Part shown: piece by piece, positions 1 to 22,477 of the stretch | Numbering within the stretch: position 1 is the stretch's first letter | How the letters are laid out: every line of letters begins with the position of its first letter | Assembly (NCBI GenBank): GCA_963777605.1 | Contig: CAVZRV010000030.1 | Coordinates: 256,001-320,000, forward strand | Reading direction: 5' to 3' | Length of the DNA: 64,000 bases | Origin: an uncultured Acidobacteriota bacterium | Lineage (GTDB): Bacteria > Acidobacteriota > UBA6911 > RPQK01 > JAPXNP01 | The notes under the pieces: model-generated | The model's database searches: none | Told to the model about the DNA's origin: nothing | Seen by the model: only the letters and a program-made list of their open reading frames with translations | Made by a program: the position numbers and the translations under genes

Positions 1-1146
1 TACCTGTTCTACGATCTGGACGCCAGGACTTTCCGTCGTTCGGATTGGGTTTGGACGTGGGGTCCGGCGATTCGATTTCTCATCGATGCGTCCAAGGTTC
101 CGGAGGTAGCCCGTCGCTATGGGGAAGAAAAGCTGCTTGCGGTGGCTCGTGAAATCGGCGACGCAAGTCTCCGCTTTTTCGTCGAGGATCCGGAGAGTCC
201 TGCCGACGGGTTGCTGATAACCCGTTTTGATCCGACGGTTCGTTACCCTCATGGGTATTCCGGATTTGCAGGTCCGGCGGACGCGTTCTTTCTGGCCGGA
301 TGGGGATACCTTCCGCTTTTCGAGGCTACTGGGGACCGGCGCTTCCTGGATGCATCCGTGCGACTGGTCAACCAGACTGAACGGCTGCTGGCCCAGGATC
401 CTGTGATCGAACAGGACTTTGTTTTCGGTTCCGGCAAGTGGAAGAACTGGACCATGGACGAGTCGGGGTTCGGCATGGAAGCCTTCGCGGAAGTGTTCCG
501 GGTGACTCAGGATCCAGCGTACCGGGAACTCGGACGCCGGTATCTTGCCAGTCTTACATCGGTTCTGGCCCGTGGAGACGGGTTATGGGACCGGACCTGG
601 CATCGCAAAGACCCGACGAGAGAAGATGACAGTTGGCCGATCGAGGGACCGGACGGCATCCCGATCCGGGTACCGACCAATGCCAATACTCGGGGATTGA
701 GCTGGGCAATGATGGGACTTCTTGCTGCCGACCGCCTTCTTCCGGGAGAGGGACACCTGGACCAGGCCAACCGGATGGCGAAGCACCTGATGGATGCCCA
801 GCATCCCGATGGTCATTGGAATTTTCTCTATGACCGTCCGGAAAGTGAAGTCGGCATCAGCGAAAAGGGGACTGCGATTTTCAGTGCGCTGTTTTATCGG
901 CTGTATCAGAAAACCCGGCATGCCGAGCACCTCGAAACGGCTCGCAAGGCATTGTACTGGTGTCTCCAACATCGGGTTTCAGAGAGCCAGGACGGTTTGG
1001 CGTGCGGAGGGATCGTGGGGCGGACACCTGCCTCGGGAGTGGTCTATCGGCGCTGGTATCCACTGATTTGCACTTACACGATGTCCTTTTACGGCAACGC
1101 GCTTCTGGCTGAGTTGGGCACCAAGAGAGAAGATCTGTCACCGTGA
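1..1146 (+). CDS. (alpha/alpha)6-barrel glycoside hydrolase-like protein (GH88/GH76/GH127-like), 5' partial
   Basis: Frame is open from base 1 (YLFYDLDARTFRRSDWVWTWG...). It has repeated helical motifs such as LFEATGDRRFLDA, VTQDPAYRELG and RGLSWAMMGL, typical of six-hairpin glycosidases. Confidence 0.55.
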   Translation, partial: YLFYDLDARTFRRSDWVWTWGPAIRFLIDASKVPEVARRYGEEKLLAVAREIGDASLRFFVEDPESPADGLLITRFDPTVRYPHGYSGFAGPADAFFLAGWGYLPLFEATGDRRFLDASVRLVNQTERLLAQDPVIEQDFVFGSGKWKNWTMDESGFGMEAFAEVFRVTQDPAYRELGRRYLASLTSVLARGDGLWDRTWHRKDPTREDDSWPIEGPDGIPIRVPTNANTRGLSWAMMGLLAADRLLPGEGHLDQANRMAKHLMDAQHPDGHWNFLYDRPESEVGISEKGTAIFSALFYRLYQKTRHAEHLETARKALYWCLQHRVSESQDGLACGGIVGRTPASGVVYRRWYPLICTYTMSFYGNALLAELGTKREDLSP

Positions 1147-2525
1147 CTGTCTCTGCCGAGTCTTCCATCCCGCAATCGCGTCTCAAGCAGTTGAATGATC
1201 GTCCCGTCCGCCCTGGGCGTTACGTTCTTTACTGGATGCAGCAATCGCAGCGGGCTGAGGAGAACCATGCCCTTGAATTCGCTATCGAACGGGCGAATCA
1301 GTGTGGCGTAGGTGTGGTGGTCATCTTCGGTTTGACGGCCGATTATCCGGAGGCCAACCGGCGTCACTACACCTTCATGCTCGAGGGTCTCCAGGATTCG
1401 GTTGAGGCACTTGCGCGGCGGGGGATCCCGATGGTCGTGCGGGTCGGAAATCCTCCCGAAGTGGCGCTTTCGCTTGCGGACGACGCCTGCATCCTGGTCT
1501 GTGACCGGGGCTACCTGAGGAACCAGAAGGCCTGGCGGCGGGAGGTGGCCGAGCGGTCGCCATGTGCGGTGTGCCAGGTCGAGAGTGACGTCGTGGTTCC
1601 GGTGGAAGTGACCTCGGGCAAAGCGGAGTACGCGGCGCGAACGATTCGTCCCCGGATTCACCGGGAGTGGGATCGATACCTGGTTGAGTTCGAGTCGATC
1701 GCATTGGAAAACCCGGTTTCTTCACCGGCAGACGGCCTGGACCTGCGGGACATCGATCGGGCGGCAGGGCAGTTGGGCCTGTCGGCGGACTTGCCTGCCG
1801 TGGGAGCCTGGTTTCGCGGCGGCACCTGCGAGGCCAAGCGGCGCTATGACGAGTTTCTGGGCGAGAAACTCACCCGGTATTCCGAACACCGCAACCAGCC
1901 CCAAACTGACGACGTCTCGGGGATGAGCCCGTATCTGCACTTCGGACAGGTCTCTCCCCTCTACCTGGCGATCGAGGCTCGACGGCGTCTGGCCGTGGCT
2001 CCTCGCGATGTGGAAACCCTCCTGGAGGAACTGATCGTACGACGGGAACTGGCCGTCAATTTTGTGGAATATACACACGACTACGATTCATTCGAGTGCC
2101 TTCCGTCCTGGGCCAGGACGACGCTCGGGAAGCATGAGTCTGATCGTCGGCCACACCTTTATTCCAGAGAAGAGCTGGTCTCCGCCCGGACGCACGATCC
2201 CTACTGGAATGCCGCAATGATGGAGATGGTCCAGACCGGGTTCATGCACAACTACATGCGGATGTACTGGGGGAAGAAGCTCCTGGAGTGGTCTTCTTCC
2301 CCGCAAGAGGCCTACCGCACAGCACTGACCCTCAACAATCGTTACTTTCTCGACGGCCGGGATGCGAACTCCTTTGCCGGTGTCGGTTGGGTGTTCGGAC
2401 TGCACGACCGACCCTGGGCCGAGCGGTCGATTTTCGGGACGATCCGCTACATGGCGGCTTCGGGACTTGAACGAAAGTGTGACATCCAAGCCTACGTCGA
2501 GAAGATCGATCGCCTGGTCGACTAA
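1143..2525 (+). CDS. phrB: Class II CPD deoxyribodipyrimidine photolyase
   Basis: Motifs YVLYWMQQSQRAEENHAL, SGMSPYLHFGQVS, GFMHNYMRMYWGKK, DGRDANSFAG and IFGTIRYM. Confidence 0.95.
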   Translation: MTVSAESSIPQSRLKQLNDRPVRPGRYVLYWMQQSQRAEENHALEFAIERANQCGVGVVVIFGLTADYPEANRRHYTFMLEGLQDSVEALARRGIPMVVRVGNPPEVALSLADDACILVCDRGYLRNQKAWRREVAERSPCAVCQVESDVVVPVEVTSGKAEYAARTIRPRIHREWDRYLVEFESIALENPVSSPADGLDLRDIDRAAGQLGLSADLPAVGAWFRGGTCEAKRRYDEFLGEKLTRYSEHRNQPQTDDVSGMSPYLHFGQVSPLYLAIEARRRLAVAPRDVETLLEELIVRRELAVNFVEYTHDYDSFECLPSWARTTLGKHESDRRPHLYSREELVSARTHDPYWNAAMMEMVQTGFMHNYMRMYWGKKLLEWSSSPQEAYRTALTLNNRYFLDGRDANSFAGVGWVFGLHDRPWAERSIFGTIRYMAASGLERKCDIQAYVEKIDRLVD

Positions 2526-4864
2526 AAGAACTGCATCGCGTACGAAAACTTCACGCCCCGGCCGATTTCCGGAGCAAGGTCCTTGATGAAGGAAACGTGG
2601 TTGCGGTAGAGCTCGTTCCCTGCATTGAAGACCTCGAACGAGAAGTGGTGAACGAAGTGCTGGGCCGGCTTTGTGTAGGAGGCCTTCAGGTTCACCACGC
2701 GGTATCCGGCCGTTCGGGTCTCATTCGGAAAAAGGTCGTCCTGGGCCGCGGCGAGGACGACCTCTGGCCGAACGCTGAAGCCGCCGTGGCGAAGATCGAC
2801 ACCGACTCTTCCTTTCAGCGGAGGAATGCGGGGGAGCGGAGTGTTCGTTTCGGTCAGCTTTGCGTCGACCATGTCGACTCCAAGATTGAGCCAGAGGATC
2901 GAGTTGAGCCCGACGTCGAGACCAAGTTCCGAGCCGATAAAGCGACTCGTTCCCTGCTCATAGTGCAGCGCCCGCAGGCCATCCTGGATGATGTTGGTCG
3001 AGGCCCCGTACACGAAGTCGCTGATGTGGTAGTAGAAGAAGTTGGCTTCACCTCTGAGCCGGTCACCGGCCTGGCGCAGCGAGAGATCGAACCCGTTGGA
3101 ACGCTCCCGGACCAGGTCGGGGTTGCCGATCTCGAAGGCGAGGTTTCCGACATGGGGACCGTAGTTGTAAAGCTCCTCGAGGCTGGGGGCGCGAAACGAA
3201 CTGGCAACGTTGGCGACGAATGCCCCATCCGTCCACAACTTGAACCTCGCTCCGGCCGCCGCCGAGAGCCCGGTGAAGCGGCGATTCGAGTAGGGAACCT
3301 GGTCGAGTACGGACGATCCGGTGGTGTCGGCGGGGCAGGTCTGGCAAATCCCGGACGGATCGTAACCCGCGTGCTCAAGACGGCCTCCGAACTGGAACTT
3401 GACGCGCTCAAGTGCCAGTTCCTCAAGGGCGAAGAGGGCCACTGTGTTCTGTTTTACCGGTGGAGACAAGGCTTCCACACCGGTTGCAGTGTAGTCGCGA
3501 AGGGCCGTGTAGACGCCGAATGTGCCACTCAGGTTGCCGGCGGCGCGCTGTTCGAGGTCTGCTCTCATCACCCATTGCTTGTTGTCGAACTGGGTTCCCA
3601 CCGATTCATCGCCGGATGGGAAAATCTCCAGTTCTCGATGTTTCCAGCGGCTGTAGCTCGAGGTAACCCGAACCGCATGGACGGGGCTGTCGAGTTCCTG
3701 GAGTCCACCGCTGAAACGGAAGCTGTGCTGGGTCCAGTCCACGTCAACGGCCTGGGGGTCCCCCTCCTGCTGAAGCGTCTGGTCTGGAGCGAGGCTGAGA
3801 GCCTGGACGGTCGAAGAAGCCGGTGTCGAAGGACCCTCGAAGGTCGTGGCGAACGGAATCCCGTAGCGCCCGTCTCTCAGGTTGTAGCCGAAGGTCAAAT
3901 AGGGTGATTTTCCGAACCAGCCGAGCCCGGCGGAACCGTTCGAGATGCGTGCCTTCGAGTTGTCGACCTTGCCTTCCGGAGTGGAATAGTCGCCCGTTCT
4001 CTGGGCACCGCTCCCGCCCCAGACCATCCAGGGACCCCATCCGTATTCCGCCGTGACCCCGGCTCCGAGGAGCCCGTTGTTGGAACCGGCGGAACTGGAC
4101 AGCTGCCCGCGGATCCCTTCGTGGCGATGCTTGTGCATTTCGTGGTGGCGGGAAATCGCGTTGACGACGCCTCCCAGCGCGCTGCTGCCGTAGAGAAGGG
4201 TCGCGGGACCCTTGACCACCTCGAGGCGTTCCAGGCTCACCGGGTCGATCGGTTCCGCATGGTCTCCGGACTGGGACCCGAGCGATCCGACGGGGAGGCC
4301 GTCTGACATTATCAGGACCCGGTCCCCGTCAAACCCGCGGATGACCGGTCGCGCGCTTCCCGGGCCAAAGCTCCGCTTGGCGACGCCCAGTTGGCCCTGC
4401 AACACTTCTCCAATCGATGGTGCGGCGTTGTCGGCCAGGGAAAAGCTGTCCATGGTCGTCACGGATTGAACCGCCTGGAACGTCGTCTCGTGGCGGTTGG
4501 AAGATGTGACGGTGACGTTTTCGTGTACTGCGGAGATCGCCAGGGAGAGTTGCAGTTGGGCCACCTGACCGGGAGTAACCTGCACGAGTTTGGCCTGCGA
4601 CGTGAGCGAAGACATATAGGCGAAAATGTCGTAACTGCCCTCCGGTACCGATTCGAAACGGAAGTGTCCGTCGTGGTCGGTTTCTACGGTCTTCCCGGTT
4701 TCCACGATCATGACGGTGGCGTGGTGGGCCGGCGTTCCATCATCTCCGAGGACGGTGCCTTCGATGGTGCCCGTACCGGCCCCCGACAGCGAACGAAGCA
4801 GGAGTAAAACCACGAAAGTAGGGACAATGCCGCTGTAAATGGTTTTTAAACAAAGCTTTATCAT
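2522..4864 (-). CDS. TonB-dependent receptor, ZnuD-like, with N-terminal carboxypeptidase-regulatory-like domain
   Basis: Plug motifs RPVIRGFDGDRVLI and DHAEPIDP...LEVVKGPATLLYGSSALGGVVN, a C-terminal Phe, and a His cluster HHEMHKHRHE. Start taken at ATG 4864 (uncertain). Confidence 0.9.
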   Translation of the reverse strand: MIKLCLKTIYSGIVPTFVVLLLLRSLSGAGTGTIEGTVLGDDGTPAHHATVMIVETGKTVETDHDGHFRFESVPEGSYDIFAYMSSLTSQAKLVQVTPGQVAQLQLSLAISAVHENVTVTSSNRHETTFQAVQSVTTMDSFSLADNAAPSIGEVLQGQLGVAKRSFGPGSARPVIRGFDGDRVLIMSDGLPVGSLGSQSGDHAEPIDPVSLERLEVVKGPATLLYGSSALGGVVNAISRHHEMHKHRHEGIRGQLSSSAGSNNGLLGAGVTAEYGWGPWMVWGGSGAQRTGDYSTPEGKVDNSKARISNGSAGLGWFGKSPYLTFGYNLRDGRYGIPFATTFEGPSTPASSTVQALSLAPDQTLQQEGDPQAVDVDWTQHSFRFSGGLQELDSPVHAVRVTSSYSRWKHRELEIFPSGDESVGTQFDNKQWVMRADLEQRAAGNLSGTFGVYTALRDYTATGVEALSPPVKQNTVALFALEELALERVKFQFGGRLEHAGYDPSGICQTCPADTTGSSVLDQVPYSNRRFTGLSAAAGARFKLWTDGAFVANVASSFRAPSLEELYNYGPHVGNLAFEIGNPDLVRERSNGFDLSLRQAGDRLRGEANFFYYHISDFVYGASTNIIQDGLRALHYEQGTSRFIGSELGLDVGLNSILWLNLGVDMVDAKLTETNTPLPRIPPLKGRVGVDLRHGGFSVRPEVVLAAAQDDLFPNETRTAGYRVVNLKASYTKPAQHFVHHFSFEVFNAGNELYRNHVSFIKDLAPEIGRGVKFSYAMQFF

Positions 4865-4965
4865 TAGACAGAACCCCAAACTCAAAAATACTAAGTGATC
4901 AAATCTTCTGGGAAACGGGCAACCCATCCACGGTTGCGCCATCTGAAACGGCATCACTTTGGGTA

Positions 4966-5307
4966 TTAGCGGAGCGTTGGAGGACTCCTCCCCAGCTGTG
5001 ATACCGGGGAGAGAATCACCTTCAAATGCTCGTCGGAGGCGGCGGCACCGAGGTGAGGAAGCGATGTGAGTAGTGTGGCCAGCGCAAGAGCCGGAAAGAG
5101 CACCGTCGAATGTGGACAGCGGTGCCCCGGTTCGGCAATGCGTTCAATGGACGCCAGCGGATCGCCCTGGGGCGCGTGCGAGTCAACCGAGAGGGGCAGG
5201 TGACCCGCAATCCTGGGACCGCTCTCCAAAGCCCACATCGACCCGAACGCCAACAGGGCGAATACCAAAAATGCAGCGCTGAGTCGGTGAATCAATTGAC
5301 GACGCAT
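4966..5307 (-). CDS. Putative leader/regulatory uORF with signal-like N-terminus and C-terminal RSPP (RAPP-like, DUF2946/CruR-like)
   Basis: 113 aa: MRRQLIHRLSAAFLVFALLAFG...GHRCPH...SQLGRSPPTLR*. Lies immediately upstream of the TBDR on the same strand. Confidence 0.6.
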   Translation of the reverse strand: MRRQLIHRLSAAFLVFALLAFGSMWALESGPRIAGHLPLSVDSHAPQGDPLASIERIAEPGHRCPHSTVLFPALALATLLTSLPHLGAAASDEHLKVILSPVSQLGRSPPTLR

Positions 5308-5429
5308 GGCCTTAGAGGCTTCGAATTGGAATGAATGTACCACAGAAGAACGTCCCCCGGCGCAGGTTGTCAGCCTTCTCTGCTACTAGTGTTGTGGAAA
5401 GGAGCGGCATCCAGAGGTCGGAAGGTAGT

Positions 5430-5744
5430 ATGGGTTTTGCGCATTCAAGTGAGGGAGAGTTCGCTCGCTTTCTTGATTTCTACCAGGTCCAGTGGCGGTA
5501 TGAGCCGATCTGTTTCCCGATCGAGTGGGACGAGTCGGGGCGGGTCGTAGCAGCATTCACACCGGATTTCTACCTTCCCGAGTTCGACATTTTCGTCGAG
5601 TTGACCACGATGAAGCAGCGGCTGGTCACCAAGAAGAATCGGAAGATCAGGCGGATGCGGGAACTCTACCCGGAGTTCCGGATCAAGATCCTCTACCGGC
5701 GGGATTACCGGAAGCTGCTCTTCAAGTTTGGGGAAATCGCATGA
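5430..5744 (+). CDS. Small hypothetical protein with PD-(D/E)xK-like nuclease signature
   Basis: SE..FARFLD...WRYEP..F...FTPDFYLPEFDIFVELTT. GAAGG precedes the ATG, and the stop overlaps the hpt start (ATGA). Confidence 0.75.
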   Translation: MGFAHSSEGEFARFLDFYQVQWRYEPICFPIEWDESGRVVAAFTPDFYLPEFDIFVELTTMKQRLVTKKNRKIRRMRELYPEFRIKILYRRDYRKLLFKFGEIA

Positions 5745-6291
5745 GCGTCCAGGGGGTGATGGTCCCTTCCGGGATACCGCCGATTCGGGATACGGTTCTG
5801 GATCGTGCAACGATTGCGCGGCGAGTTTCCGAGTTGGGCCGGGAAATCAGTGCCGACTACCAGGGCAGGGAAGTCGTCCTGGTTGGAATCCTGAAGGGGG
5901 CATACCTGTTCGCGAGCGACCTGGCCCGGTCCGTTTCCGTTCCCTGCCAACTGGAGTTCGTTTCCATCAGCAGGTACCGTCGGTCAACCGGGTTCAAGGA
6001 AGTGCGTCTCATCAAGGATGTAGACCTCGATCTTTCGGACCGTCACGTGATCCTGGTAGAGGACATCGTTGACACGGGCTTGACACTGCGTTACCTGGTG
6101 GATGAACTTTCCGGCCGATCCCCCGATCAATTGAGATTTGCAGCCTGCTCGATCGTCCTGACCTCCGTCTGGCCGACATTCCCTTGCGTTACGTCGGTTT
6201 CAACGTCAGTGAAGAGTTCCTCGTGGGCTACGGACTCGACTTCAGAGAACAGTACCGGGGACTCCCCTTCATAGCCACCCTGGACCTGTAA
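5741..6291 (+). CDS. hpt: Hypoxanthine phosphoribosyltransferase (frameshift in C5 run at about 6120-6124, probably a sequencing error)
   Basis: VGILKGAYLFASDL and the PRPP loop VILVEDIVDTGLTL. The C-terminal CSLLDRP...EEFLVGYGLDFREQYRGLPFI continues in another frame to TAA 6289-6291. Confidence 0.9.
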
Positions 6292-20836: not shown

Positions 20837-22477
20837 ATGAACCTGATCATGCCCGGGAGCCTTGCGAAGTGGTTCCGACGTCCCGTCCTTTGTGTCGTCC
20901 TGGTTTTCCTCATGCCGACATTTGCGGCGCTGCGAGCTCAAGACAAGAAGAAGGACTTGCGGCAAGAAGAATCTGTCGATTACTACGACAAGTGGCTCAA
21001 CGAGGACGTCGTTTACATCATCACCCCGCAAGAGCGGGAAGTTTTTGAAAAGCTCACGAATCCCGAAGAGAAAGAGCGCTTTATCGAGCAGTTCTGGTTT
21101 CGGCGGGATCCCGATATGTCCACGCCGACAAATGAATACAAGGAAGAGCACTACCGTCGGCTGGCCTACGCCAATGAGCGGTTCAAGAGTGGCGTTCCCG
21201 GGTGGCGGACCGATCGAGGGCGCATCTACATCATTCACGGGGCCCCTATCGAAGTTGAATCGCACAAGATGGGCCAGAGCTACACGCGCCCGACCAATGA
21301 GGGCGGTGGCCAGACCGTCACTTACCCGTTCGAGATCTGGCGCTATCGCCACATCGAGGGTCTGGGGGACGATATTCAAATTGAGTTCGTCGATCCCGGG
21401 GGAAGCGGTGAGTTCCGAATCGCCCTGACTCCCTGGGAAAAAGACGCGCTGCTGAATATTCCGAATTCAGGCCTGACAATCGCGGAAGAGCTCGGGGTGG
21501 CGACCCGCCGGGATCACCCCTATTTCAGCCCCGGCAACTACGACAGCTATTTTGGGATGCATACGACCATCAGGGACGATCCCTTTATCCGATATGAGAC
21601 GCTGGCCAAGCTGCAACAGGCTCAGCCGATCAAGTACAAGGATCTGAAGGAACTCGTTGATGTCAACATCAGCTACGACCAGGTTCCGTTTCAAACGCGG
21701 ACCGACTATTTCCAGTTGAGTGACCGGCAGGTGTTGAGTTCAATCAGCGTGGAATTACAAAACAAGGACCTTTCCTTTGCCCTTGAAAACGGCGTTAATG
21801 TTGCGCGGGTGGCGATCTACGGTATGGTGACGAGTATTTCGAATCATGTGGTCACCGAGTTCGACGACGATGTGGTTGCGTCGTACACCCCTGCCCAGTT
21901 GACCGCCGGACTTCAATCGCGTTCCATATACCAGAAGGTCCTCCCCCTGGATCGCAAGCTGCGGTACCGGCTGGATCTCATCATTAAGGACCTGGCATCG
22001 GGTAAGGTGGGCCACAAGCGAATCGGGCTGATTCCGCCTGGCGAAACCCCCGACAGGCTGGCGTCGAGTTCGGTGATTCTGTCTGATTCCCTGCAGGAAC
22101 TGGATCGCGTCCCGGAAGTTGACGAAATGTTCCTGCTCGGAAACGTGAAGGTCCGTCCGGTGCTCGACAAGACCTTCTCGGAGAAGGATCCGTTCTGGAT
22201 CTACTTTCAGCTCTACAACGCTCAACTCGATCAGTCGAACCTGACCCCGTCGCTGAAGGTGTCGTACCGGATCAATCACGAAGGGCGGAAGGTCGCGGAG
22301 TTTGTTGACCAAAGCGGGGAGAGCGTCCAGTTCTTTTCCGGGCAGAGGATTGTCCTGATCAGCCGGTTCCCGATCAACGGGTTCAAGGCCGGGACTTACG
22401 AGTTGGAGATTGATGTCGAAGACCAGCTCAGCGGGCAGTCCCTGAGTCTTCGGGATACCTTCAAGGTTTCGAGTTGA
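20837..22477 (+). CDS. GWxTD domain-containing protein
   Basis: WLNEDVVYII, FWFRRDP, EEHYRRLAYANERF and GWRTDRGRIYIIHG; signal peptide. Confidence 0.92.
   Translation: MNLIMPGSLAKWFRRPVLCVVLVFLMPTFAALRAQDKKKDLRQEESVDYYDKWLNEDVVYIITPQEREVFEKLTNPEEKERFIEQFWFRRDPDMSTPTNEYKEEHYRRLAYANERFKSGVPGWRTDRGRIYIIHGAPIEVESHKMGQSYTRPTNEGGGQTVTYPFEIWRYRHIEGLGDDIQIEFVDPGGSGEFRIALTPWEKDALLNIPNSGLTIAEELGVATRRDHPYFSPGNYDSYFGMHTTIRDDPFIRYETLAKLQQAQPIKYKDLKELVDVNISYDQVPFQTRTDYFQLSDRQVLSSISVELQNKDLSFALENGVNVARVAIYGMVTSISNHVVTEFDDDVVASYTPAQLTAGLQSRSIYQKVLPLDRKLRYRLDLIIKDLASGKVGHKRIGLIPPGETPDRLASSSVILSDSLQELDRVPEVDEMFLLGNVKVRPVLDKTFSEKDPFWIYFQLYNAQLDQSNLTPSLKVSYRINHEGRKVAEFVDQSGESVQFFSGQRIVLISRFPINGFKAGTYELEIDVEDQLSGQSLSLRDTFKVSS

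Follow-up and report, generated by a model that had tools for sequence, protein, structure and literature searches.

Arrest peptides that sense metals have been recognized as a class of regulators only very recently, with CruR described in 2022, CutF between 2023 and 2025, and the survey of RAPP/RGPP peptides in 2025, and to our knowledge copper is the only ligand that has been shown for any of them. Here we describe a candidate for this class in a 64,000-nucleotide (nt) stretch of the genome of an uncultured Acidobacteriota bacterium (assembly GCA_963777605.1, contig CAVZRV010000030.1, positions 256,001 to 320,000 of the forward strand; hereafter the window), where a short open reading frame (ORF) ending in an R-S-P-P motif lies upstream of the gene for a ZnuD-like TonB-dependent receptor. 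An original prediction, made from the letters of this stretch, had proposed that the short ORF is a metal-sensing ribosome-arrest leader. Comparative evidence supports that proposal, and we consider it likely that the leader is a cis-acting arrest peptide of the CruR/CutF type, in which a metal-tuned stall of the exported nascent chain at R-x-P-P sets the synthesis of the receptor; stalling, metal sensing, and sensing during export are properties that we infer from sequence.

Among the described systems, CruR (Bp2923 of Bordetella pertussis, DUF2946/PF11162; Roy et al. 2022) is a copper-responsive, RAPP-dependent upstream ORF (uORF) that precedes the gene for the TonB transporter BfrG and acts via Rho, and its Cys motif and RAPP are separated by 45 residues, a spacing whose alteration disturbs regulation (PMC9426467). 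The RAPP of CruR is needed for downstream expression, and its intergenic region is long and structured. In CutF of Rhodobacter capsulatus (Ozturk et al.), a copper-induced stall of the exported nascent chain melts a stem over the following gene's Shine-Dalgarno (SD) sequence, and disulfide formation has been proposed within stall release (bioRxiv 10.1101/2025.02.05.636593). The ApdA/ApdP class comprises small secretory or membrane proteins with R-[AG]-P-P close to the C-terminus and includes uORFs before TonB receptors; a study of December 2025 describes RAPP/RGPP uORFs in this position as universal among Gram-negative bacteria (PMC12992588), the supplement of that study giving 5450 cases with RAPP versus 722 with AAPP in which the downstream product is a 'TonB-dependent receptor'. 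A further arrest peptide with RAPP/RGPP, SLIV_16130 of Streptomyces lividans, precedes a metal-homeostasis gene and has conserved Cys/His residues predicted to form a metal site (PMC12992588); it differs in its Gram-positive host and in a downstream gene that is not a TonB receptor, and we liken it to the window leader by its description, not by sequence comparison.

With CruR the window leader shares the layout of a small, predictedly exported uORF before a TonB transporter, with a Cys motif at a fixed distance from a C-terminal R-x-P-P (RAPP in CruR) that stands three residues before the stop. The two differ in their details: CruR has CXXC, a spacing of 45 residues, and copper as its ligand, whereas the window leader has a single Cys in HxCxH, a spacing of 42 residues, and RSPP; the PF11162 model fails on the window leader; the receptor is ZnuD-like, not BfrG-like; and a role of Rho is shown for CruR. 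CutF, unlike the window leader, combines CXXXC with an EF-P-sensitive PPP and turns on a detoxifying oxidase at high copper. Because the gene downstream of the window leader encodes an importer, the opposite logic to that of CutF would be expected here.

The leader ORF occupies positions 4966–5307 on the minus strand (113 codons plus the stop codon), an assignment that is supported by a family alignment (A1) and an independent hidden Markov model (HMM). The features on which the original prediction was built are all present at this position: the peptide starts with MRRQLIHRLSAAFLVFALLAFG, a signal-like N-terminus, carries GHRCPH in its middle, contains seven His and one Cys, and ends QLGRSPPTLR before the stop codon (4966–4968), which places the RSPP codons (4978–4989) three residues ahead of the stop. 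Residues 1–28 (5224–5307) are predicted from sequence and from an AlphaFold2 helix to be a basic and hydrophobic export or anchor segment, and the presumed metal-ligand motif H62-R-C64-P-H66 (5110–5124) contains the sole Cys, exactly 42 residues ahead of Arg107. In the window's own genome (58.8% G + C; G000), six-frame translation gave 59,890 ORFs with 60 or more amino acids, and we found R[AGSD]PP within the last 14 residues of 137 of them, only two of which also had a hydrophobic N-terminus and a length of at most 220 amino acids, the window leader being one. A non-circular HMM, built from 16 relatives with the window leader and its two closest kin left out, ranked the window ORF at the top of all 59,890 (E = 2.7e-6; runner-up, 0.35). 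The second ORF that passed both filters (contig C50, minus strand, reverse-complement coordinates 21665–22093) has 142 amino acids and ends DGRSPPRLQS; it looks like a membrane protein and resembles the tail of a transporter, not a leader.

We sought orthologues of the receptor in related genomes (45–65% identity, or 43–65% with the named records included, which are metagenome-assembled genomes, or MAGs, of Acidobacteriota) and counted the 28 loci with at least 300 nt of DNA 5′ of the receptor N-terminus (25 loci plus L057–L059), leaving out two loci (L005 and L007) with less than 100 nt of upstream DNA. A same-strand leader ORF of about 100–120 codons was kept in 22 of these 28 loci. The 22 leaders share an N-terminus that is basic and hydrophobic, a middle part rich in His, a Cys in HxCxH (CxxC in L023 and L026, the only two CxxC leaders among 21), and R-x-P-P near the end, and both the terminal motif and the His/Cys motif of the original prediction are therefore retained beside the receptor. 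One of the 22 leaders (L014; RGPP, spacing of 42), which is also a row of A1, comes from an unpublished genome (G018), and no conclusion rests on it.

Alignment A1 comprises 19 leader rows of 83–122 amino acids, two of which are cut by locus ends, and identity to the window leader across these rows is 12–28%. The only invariant columns are M1, C64, R107, and P110, followed by H44 and P109 at 90% or more (P109 in 18 of 19 rows). Across the 22 leaders the terminal motif reads RAPP in eight, RGPP in eight, RSPP in three, RDPP in two, and RGSP in one, with the x of R-x-P-P limited to A, G, S, and D. In mutagenesis of ApdA, G is fully permissive and S, D, and P are partially permissive at position 2, with RDPP and RSPP likewise partially permissive in ApdP (PMC12992588); the x residues of this family thus all belong to the five (A, G, S, D, and P) that are compatible with arrest in ApdA, with P alone absent. 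The motif lies 1–6 residues from the stop in 20 of 21 complete leaders; the exception (L016, in genome G020) has RGPP followed by a 20-residue tail. Of 21 leaders, 16 have a distance of 42 residues from Cys to Arg, three have 43, and the two of the CxxC type have 44, and the intervening sequence is unconserved while its length is fixed; the distance from the start to the Cys ranges from 43 to 73 over the 17 leaders with a placed Cys. For one pair of closely related leaders (L020 and L021; amino acid identity 0.95), nonsynonymous divergence (dN) was 0.024 and synonymous divergence (dS) was zero, meaning that the changes are in amino acids only, and most of the leader peptide is evolving fast or under relaxed constraint; as dS exceeded 1.4 and was saturated in four pairs and was zero in the fifth, dN/dS ratios are uninformative. 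On this alignment, few positions and one length appear to matter in the peptide, and the pattern is unlike that of a folded protein and typical of a regulatory peptide.

These observations bear on the possibility that the leader is instead a stable, small periplasmic or membrane-anchored metal-binding partner of the receptor, such as a chaperone or accessory protein, in which R-x-P-P would be a structural or interaction motif. An ORF conserved beside the receptor with a signal-like N-terminus and His/Cys ligands is compatible with such a partner, as is a faint full-length resemblance of the leader in NCBIfam to the putative copper lipoprotein LpqS (E = 0.07; 2 of 19 members). However, AlphaFold2, run with A1, was confident solely for a helix at residues 2–35 (mean predicted local distance difference test scores, pLDDT, of 94, 97, and 86 for the first three 10-residue blocks) and gave no globular fold for the leader, the remaining blocks having mean pLDDT of 51–73. 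The combination of a free sequence and a fixed length between the motifs also argues against a stable protein, as does the retention of an always C-terminal R-x-P-P with x confined to arrest-compatible residues. Moreover, R-x-P-P is among the most avoided tetrapeptides in bacterial proteomes, those of Acidobacteriota included (PMC12992588), for which the supplement gives mean frequency biases of 0.076 for RGPP and 0.117 for RAPP, a strong under-representation. We therefore regard a stable partner protein as quite unlikely.

Whether the ORF is translated at all can be judged from the same set of loci. An untranslated RNA element, or open frames that arose by chance in a GC-rich 5′ region, would fit the small number of gene callers that report the ORF (no protein from the word search, one from HMMER, and 11 from the profile) and the 58.8% G + C content of the genome, which lengthens random ORFs. 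Against this, the conserved positions are amino acids that are encoded by differing codons (AGG, CGA, CGC, CGG, and CGT for Arg, and all four codons for Pro), 22 loci preserve the frame, the length, and the site of the stop codon behind R-x-P-P, and no Rfam family matched positions 4600–5600 at E ≤ 1. An untranslated element is thus scarcely credible.

The fixed 42-residue ruler between Cys and Arg echoes the 45-residue one of CruR, and by analogy the leader may work like CruR without being a member of its family. An arrest leader could also monitor export, membrane insertion, or the redox state of the envelope, as SecM, ApdA/ApdP, and MifM do, in which case its Cys and His residues would serve folding or disulfide formation and not metal sensing. 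The N-terminal export helix and R-x-P-P do resemble those of localisation monitors (PMC12992588), a disulfide enters the proposal for stall release in CutF, and the locus has no independent tie to a metal regulator. Nevertheless, the downstream gene encodes a metal-type TonB receptor and no component of Sec or YidC, the residue that never varies is a His-flanked Cys with more His upstream, a lone Cys precludes an intramolecular disulfide, and the fixed distance from Cys to Arg mirrors that of a copper sensor, CruR. We consider a monitor of this kind very unlikely, and favor a metal-tuned arrest leader.

The original prediction had further described the leader as a divergent version of the DUF2946 system, of which the architecture is borne out and homology is not demonstrated. 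The predicted export signal and the position as first gene before a TonB receptor (same strand, 101 nt) are both present, and the C-terminal motif is present as R-x-P-P and not as the literal RAPP; the window leader has no CxxC. The distance from Cys to Arg is 42–44 residues across the leaders, as against 45, give or take one or two, in the DUF2946 family. The window leader likewise has the sequence hallmark of the ApdA/ApdP class, namely a permissive R-x-P-P near the C-terminus of a small, upstream-encoded, predicted secretory or membrane protein. The window leader had no Pfam match at E ≤ 1, PF11162 (DUF2946) included, and six-frame searches of 41 related genomes found no match to PF11162 above its gathering score (23.7 bits), so that the HMM comparison with DUF2946 that had been suggested as a check came out negative. 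Two of the 19 aligned leaders match PF11162 weakly (best E = 0.0031), and these matches, together with the CxxC of L023 and L026, link the two designs. Judged from these sequences, the shared architecture and the CxxC form in two orthologous loci would favor extreme divergence from DUF2946 over convergence. In the ESM Atlas the nearest clusters were unnamed hypothetical proteins and the nearest named one was 'DUF2946 domain-containing' (0.94, 90 shared features), which we treat as a lead only.

Broader searches recovered few relatives of the leader. A single-sequence, word-indexed search with the window leader gave no match, and the same search with a CxxC-type leader (P0012) returned only itself. 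When HMMER was run in full against 1.84 billion representatives, a single protein was recovered (P0001, 39% identity, ending HLRGPPALDLTLV), and the A1 profile retrieved 11 from 5.8 billion proteins, each of them 'hypothetical' or unnamed and without a Pfam domain; ten of these end in RAPP and one in RGPP (P0012, which has the same sequence as the L023 leader). Searching the PDB with a profile of the leader gave only chance matches (E > 1). Among 301 genomes of the phylum the A1 profile had 15 matches, 11 of them within the window's own order. The four matches outside the order were rejected: L044 is spurious, lying antisense to an efflux-pump operon, and L042, L043, and L045 were dismissed from their table rows alone, which show open frames of 340 and 591 amino acids or internal stops.

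The original prediction had held such a system to be undescribed. The class itself has been published, as RAPP/RGPP uORFs before TonB receptors (PMC12992588), and what remains of the claim is that full-text literature searches returned no paper that treats this His/Cys leader family or describes a zinc-type receptor controlled by a leader of this sort. The published surveys were keyed on RAPP/RGPP in annotated proteins, unlike the window leader with its RSPP and most members of its family, which are unannotated, and the available portions of PMC10951233 and PMC12992588 do not describe a His/Cys module or a 42-residue ruler for the RAPP/RGPP class. The class is thus known, and the new details are an unnamed family, a presumed sensor with a single Cys in HxCxH, a 42-residue ruler, and a zinc-type receptor.

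The receptor itself (780 amino acids; 2522–4864, minus strand) has matches in Pfam, NCBIfam, and PDB and consists of a CarboxypepD_reg domain (4541–4768), a Plug domain (4166–4477), and a TonB barrel domain (2624–3892), all from Pfam and on the minus strand. Its frame is open from 4957; we took the ATG at 4864 as the start because it is aligned with the orthologues and opens a signal peptide, MIKLCLKTIYSGIVPTFVVLLLL. The top NCBIfam family is ZnuD (NF038289), with a score of 231.3 bits that is below the curated cut-off of 950, and the closest solved relative is ZnuD of Neisseria meningitidis (PDB 4RDR, E = 1.8e-35), with a match limited to residues 115–338. The window receptor differs from ZnuD in its low score and in an additional N-terminal CarboxypepD_reg domain. 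In line with the original prediction of a ZnuD-like plug and a His-rich patch, HHEMHKHRHE is found at residues 240–249 (4118–4147, minus strand), directly C-terminal to the plug, and as in ZnuD the His-rich stretch is conserved: at least three His fall within the 34 aligned residues around the patch in 25 of 26 orthologues, three aligned leaderless loci included. We thus call the receptor ZnuD-like only, and zinc is its predicted substrate.

A possible mechanism can be outlined for a metal-tuned arrest leader, with the geometry of the stall at the RSPP codons adopted from PMC10951233. At the stall, the Cys/His motif would lie about 44 residues from the peptidyl-transferase center and hence just clear of the exit tunnel, where binding of a divalent metal could alter the force on the nascent chain or its fold, and thereby the lifetime of the stall. 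The logic of CruR would best suit an uptake receptor: a metal-free stall would keep the receptor on, and metal would release the ribosome and turn the receptor down. Zinc is our first guess for the ligand because of the receptor type and the His/Cys ligands, with copper, nickel, and cobalt also possible. A more specific form of this mechanism, in which the HxCxH site would bind Zn(II) as it emerges, 42 residues behind the arrest Arg, and the CCU-CCN Pro codons would double as an anti-SD sequence, is doubtful at present.

The region between the two genes (4865–4965, minus strand) offers candidate routes by which a stall could be coupled to the receptor. It measures 101 nt from the leader stop to the ATG at 4864, close to the 100 nt originally estimated, and the GCAACC/GGTTGC hairpin noted at 4919–4937 can be read in the sequence and is present in the computed fold. 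The gap is 40–125 nt long and structured in 17 of 19 loci and longer in the other two (L006 and L028), and no intrinsic terminator was found in 2300–5600. We folded the RNA from the Arg codon to the receptor start at these 19 loci. The minimum free energy (MFE) fold of the window locus had −40.9 kcal/mol (z = −1.89), and 8 of 200 shuffles folded at least as well; here the receptor ribosome-binding region GAGUUUGGGGUUCU (4870–4883, minus strand) is paired with the S-P-P-T-L-R codons of the leader. Judged by eye, 11 of the 19 MFE folds show the receptor SD paired to the arrest codons or to the few that follow them, while two are borderline and six are unpaired. As duplex partner of the SD, R-x-P-P ranks third among 134 sequence windows at the window locus and falls within the top 5% at eight of the 19 loci (median fraction pairing equally or better, 0.096). 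Nine of 18 leaders use CCU for the first Pro, as compared to 16% in the receptor genes (binomial p = 0.001, with kin not independent). Given an arrest leader, we see a nearly even prospect that coupling operates by uncovering the receptor ribosome-binding site, which in many loci is paired with the CCUCC of the Pro-Pro codons. Shielding of the transcript from Rho, by analogy with CruR, is a lesser but still sizeable possibility, and some other route is rather unlikely.

The leader also appears to have its own promoter. An extended −10-like element, TGGTACATT, lies at 5334–5342 (minus strand), 27–35 nt upstream of the leader start codon, and in 10 of 16 loci the 45 nt that precede the leader start contain TGnTAnnnT, mostly 15–26 nt ahead of it, compared to 11 of 1751 control windows of 45 nt drawn from the same loci (0.6%). 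Two further loci (L014 and L018) have TATACT without TG at the same place. A sigma-70 scan of 2300–5600 reported one site only, on the other strand; it omitted the TGGTACATT element because it demands a −35 hexamer. With a −10 element directly upstream, the leader would be the first cistron, with a 5′ untranslated region that is very short or absent.

Several results weigh against a metal-tuned arrest leader or against particular parts of it. RSPP is only partially permissive in ApdA and ApdP, so the window copy may stall weakly, and one database relative (P0010) is without the Cys. The leader is absent from six of the 28 loci (L004, L008, L019, and L057–L059), and the receptor can therefore do without it; a radical-SAM-like gene lies upstream of the receptor in L004 and another gene in L008, while L057–L059 are one family with a more distant receptor. 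On the side of coupling, a partition-function model of the ribosome footprint with 60 nt of leader added barely opened the SD (mean unpaired probability from 0.29 to 0.33, with 0.27 for a control footprint), with a gain of at least 0.2 in one of 19 loci and a change from 0.26 to 0.24 at the window locus. CCNCCN is complementary to GGAGG by composition, and the pairing signal is therefore possibly in part a by-product. As a proxy for a Rho site, the bias of C over G in the 60 nt past the Arg codon is mild (0.34 vs 0.22). Finally, no Zur/Fur-like palindrome with arms of 7–9 recurs over the 200 nt that precede 16 leaders, and the locus therefore has no independent tie to zinc.

Three orthologous loci have peculiarities of their own. 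In L019 (G022), a transposase-like ORF of more than 320 amino acids occupies the position of the leader, which suggests loss of the leader, or its displacement, through a mobile element. In L030 (G027, contig C11), the receptor behind a complete RAPP leader matches as four pieces in different frames (query residues 11–288, 297–607, 605–720, and 715–780) and may reflect gene decay or a fault in the assembly. In L051, from a Pyrinomonadaceae MAG record, a different small same-strand ORF lies about 250–600 nt upstream of a receptor match at 1501 (45% identical); it has a hydrophobic N-terminus, several Cys, and a proline-rich C-terminus, FRPPDPPFHPPRLS, before its stop, and may be another kind of proline-stall leader.

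On either side of the leader and receptor, the window encodes a DNA photolyase (1143–2525, plus strand) that converges on the 3′ end of the receptor gene, and a divergent ORF of 137 amino acids (5331–5744, plus strand) with a faint match to Phage_endo_I (E = 0.0032), followed by an ORF that, judged by eye, is phosphoribosyltransferase-like (5745–6274, plus strand). Since these neighbors are unrelated to metals, we take the unit to consist of the leader and the receptor only.

If the zinc-sensing form of the mechanism were true, one short sequence would be both brake and RNA lock, the leader would be the first zinc-responsive arrest peptide, and the CruR design would have been re-invented independently, or have diverged to an extreme degree, in Acidobacteriota. 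The family spans an order of soil Acidobacteriota and offers a natural experiment, in which the same stall motif and nearly the same ruler are combined with different ligands and a zinc-type receptor, with natural variation among A, G, S, and D at the tunable position of the motif and with two orthologous loci that retain the CxxC design. Most of these regulatory genes are missed by automated annotation, so that one level of control over TonB receptor expression in soil Acidobacteria probably stays hidden from present genome annotation.

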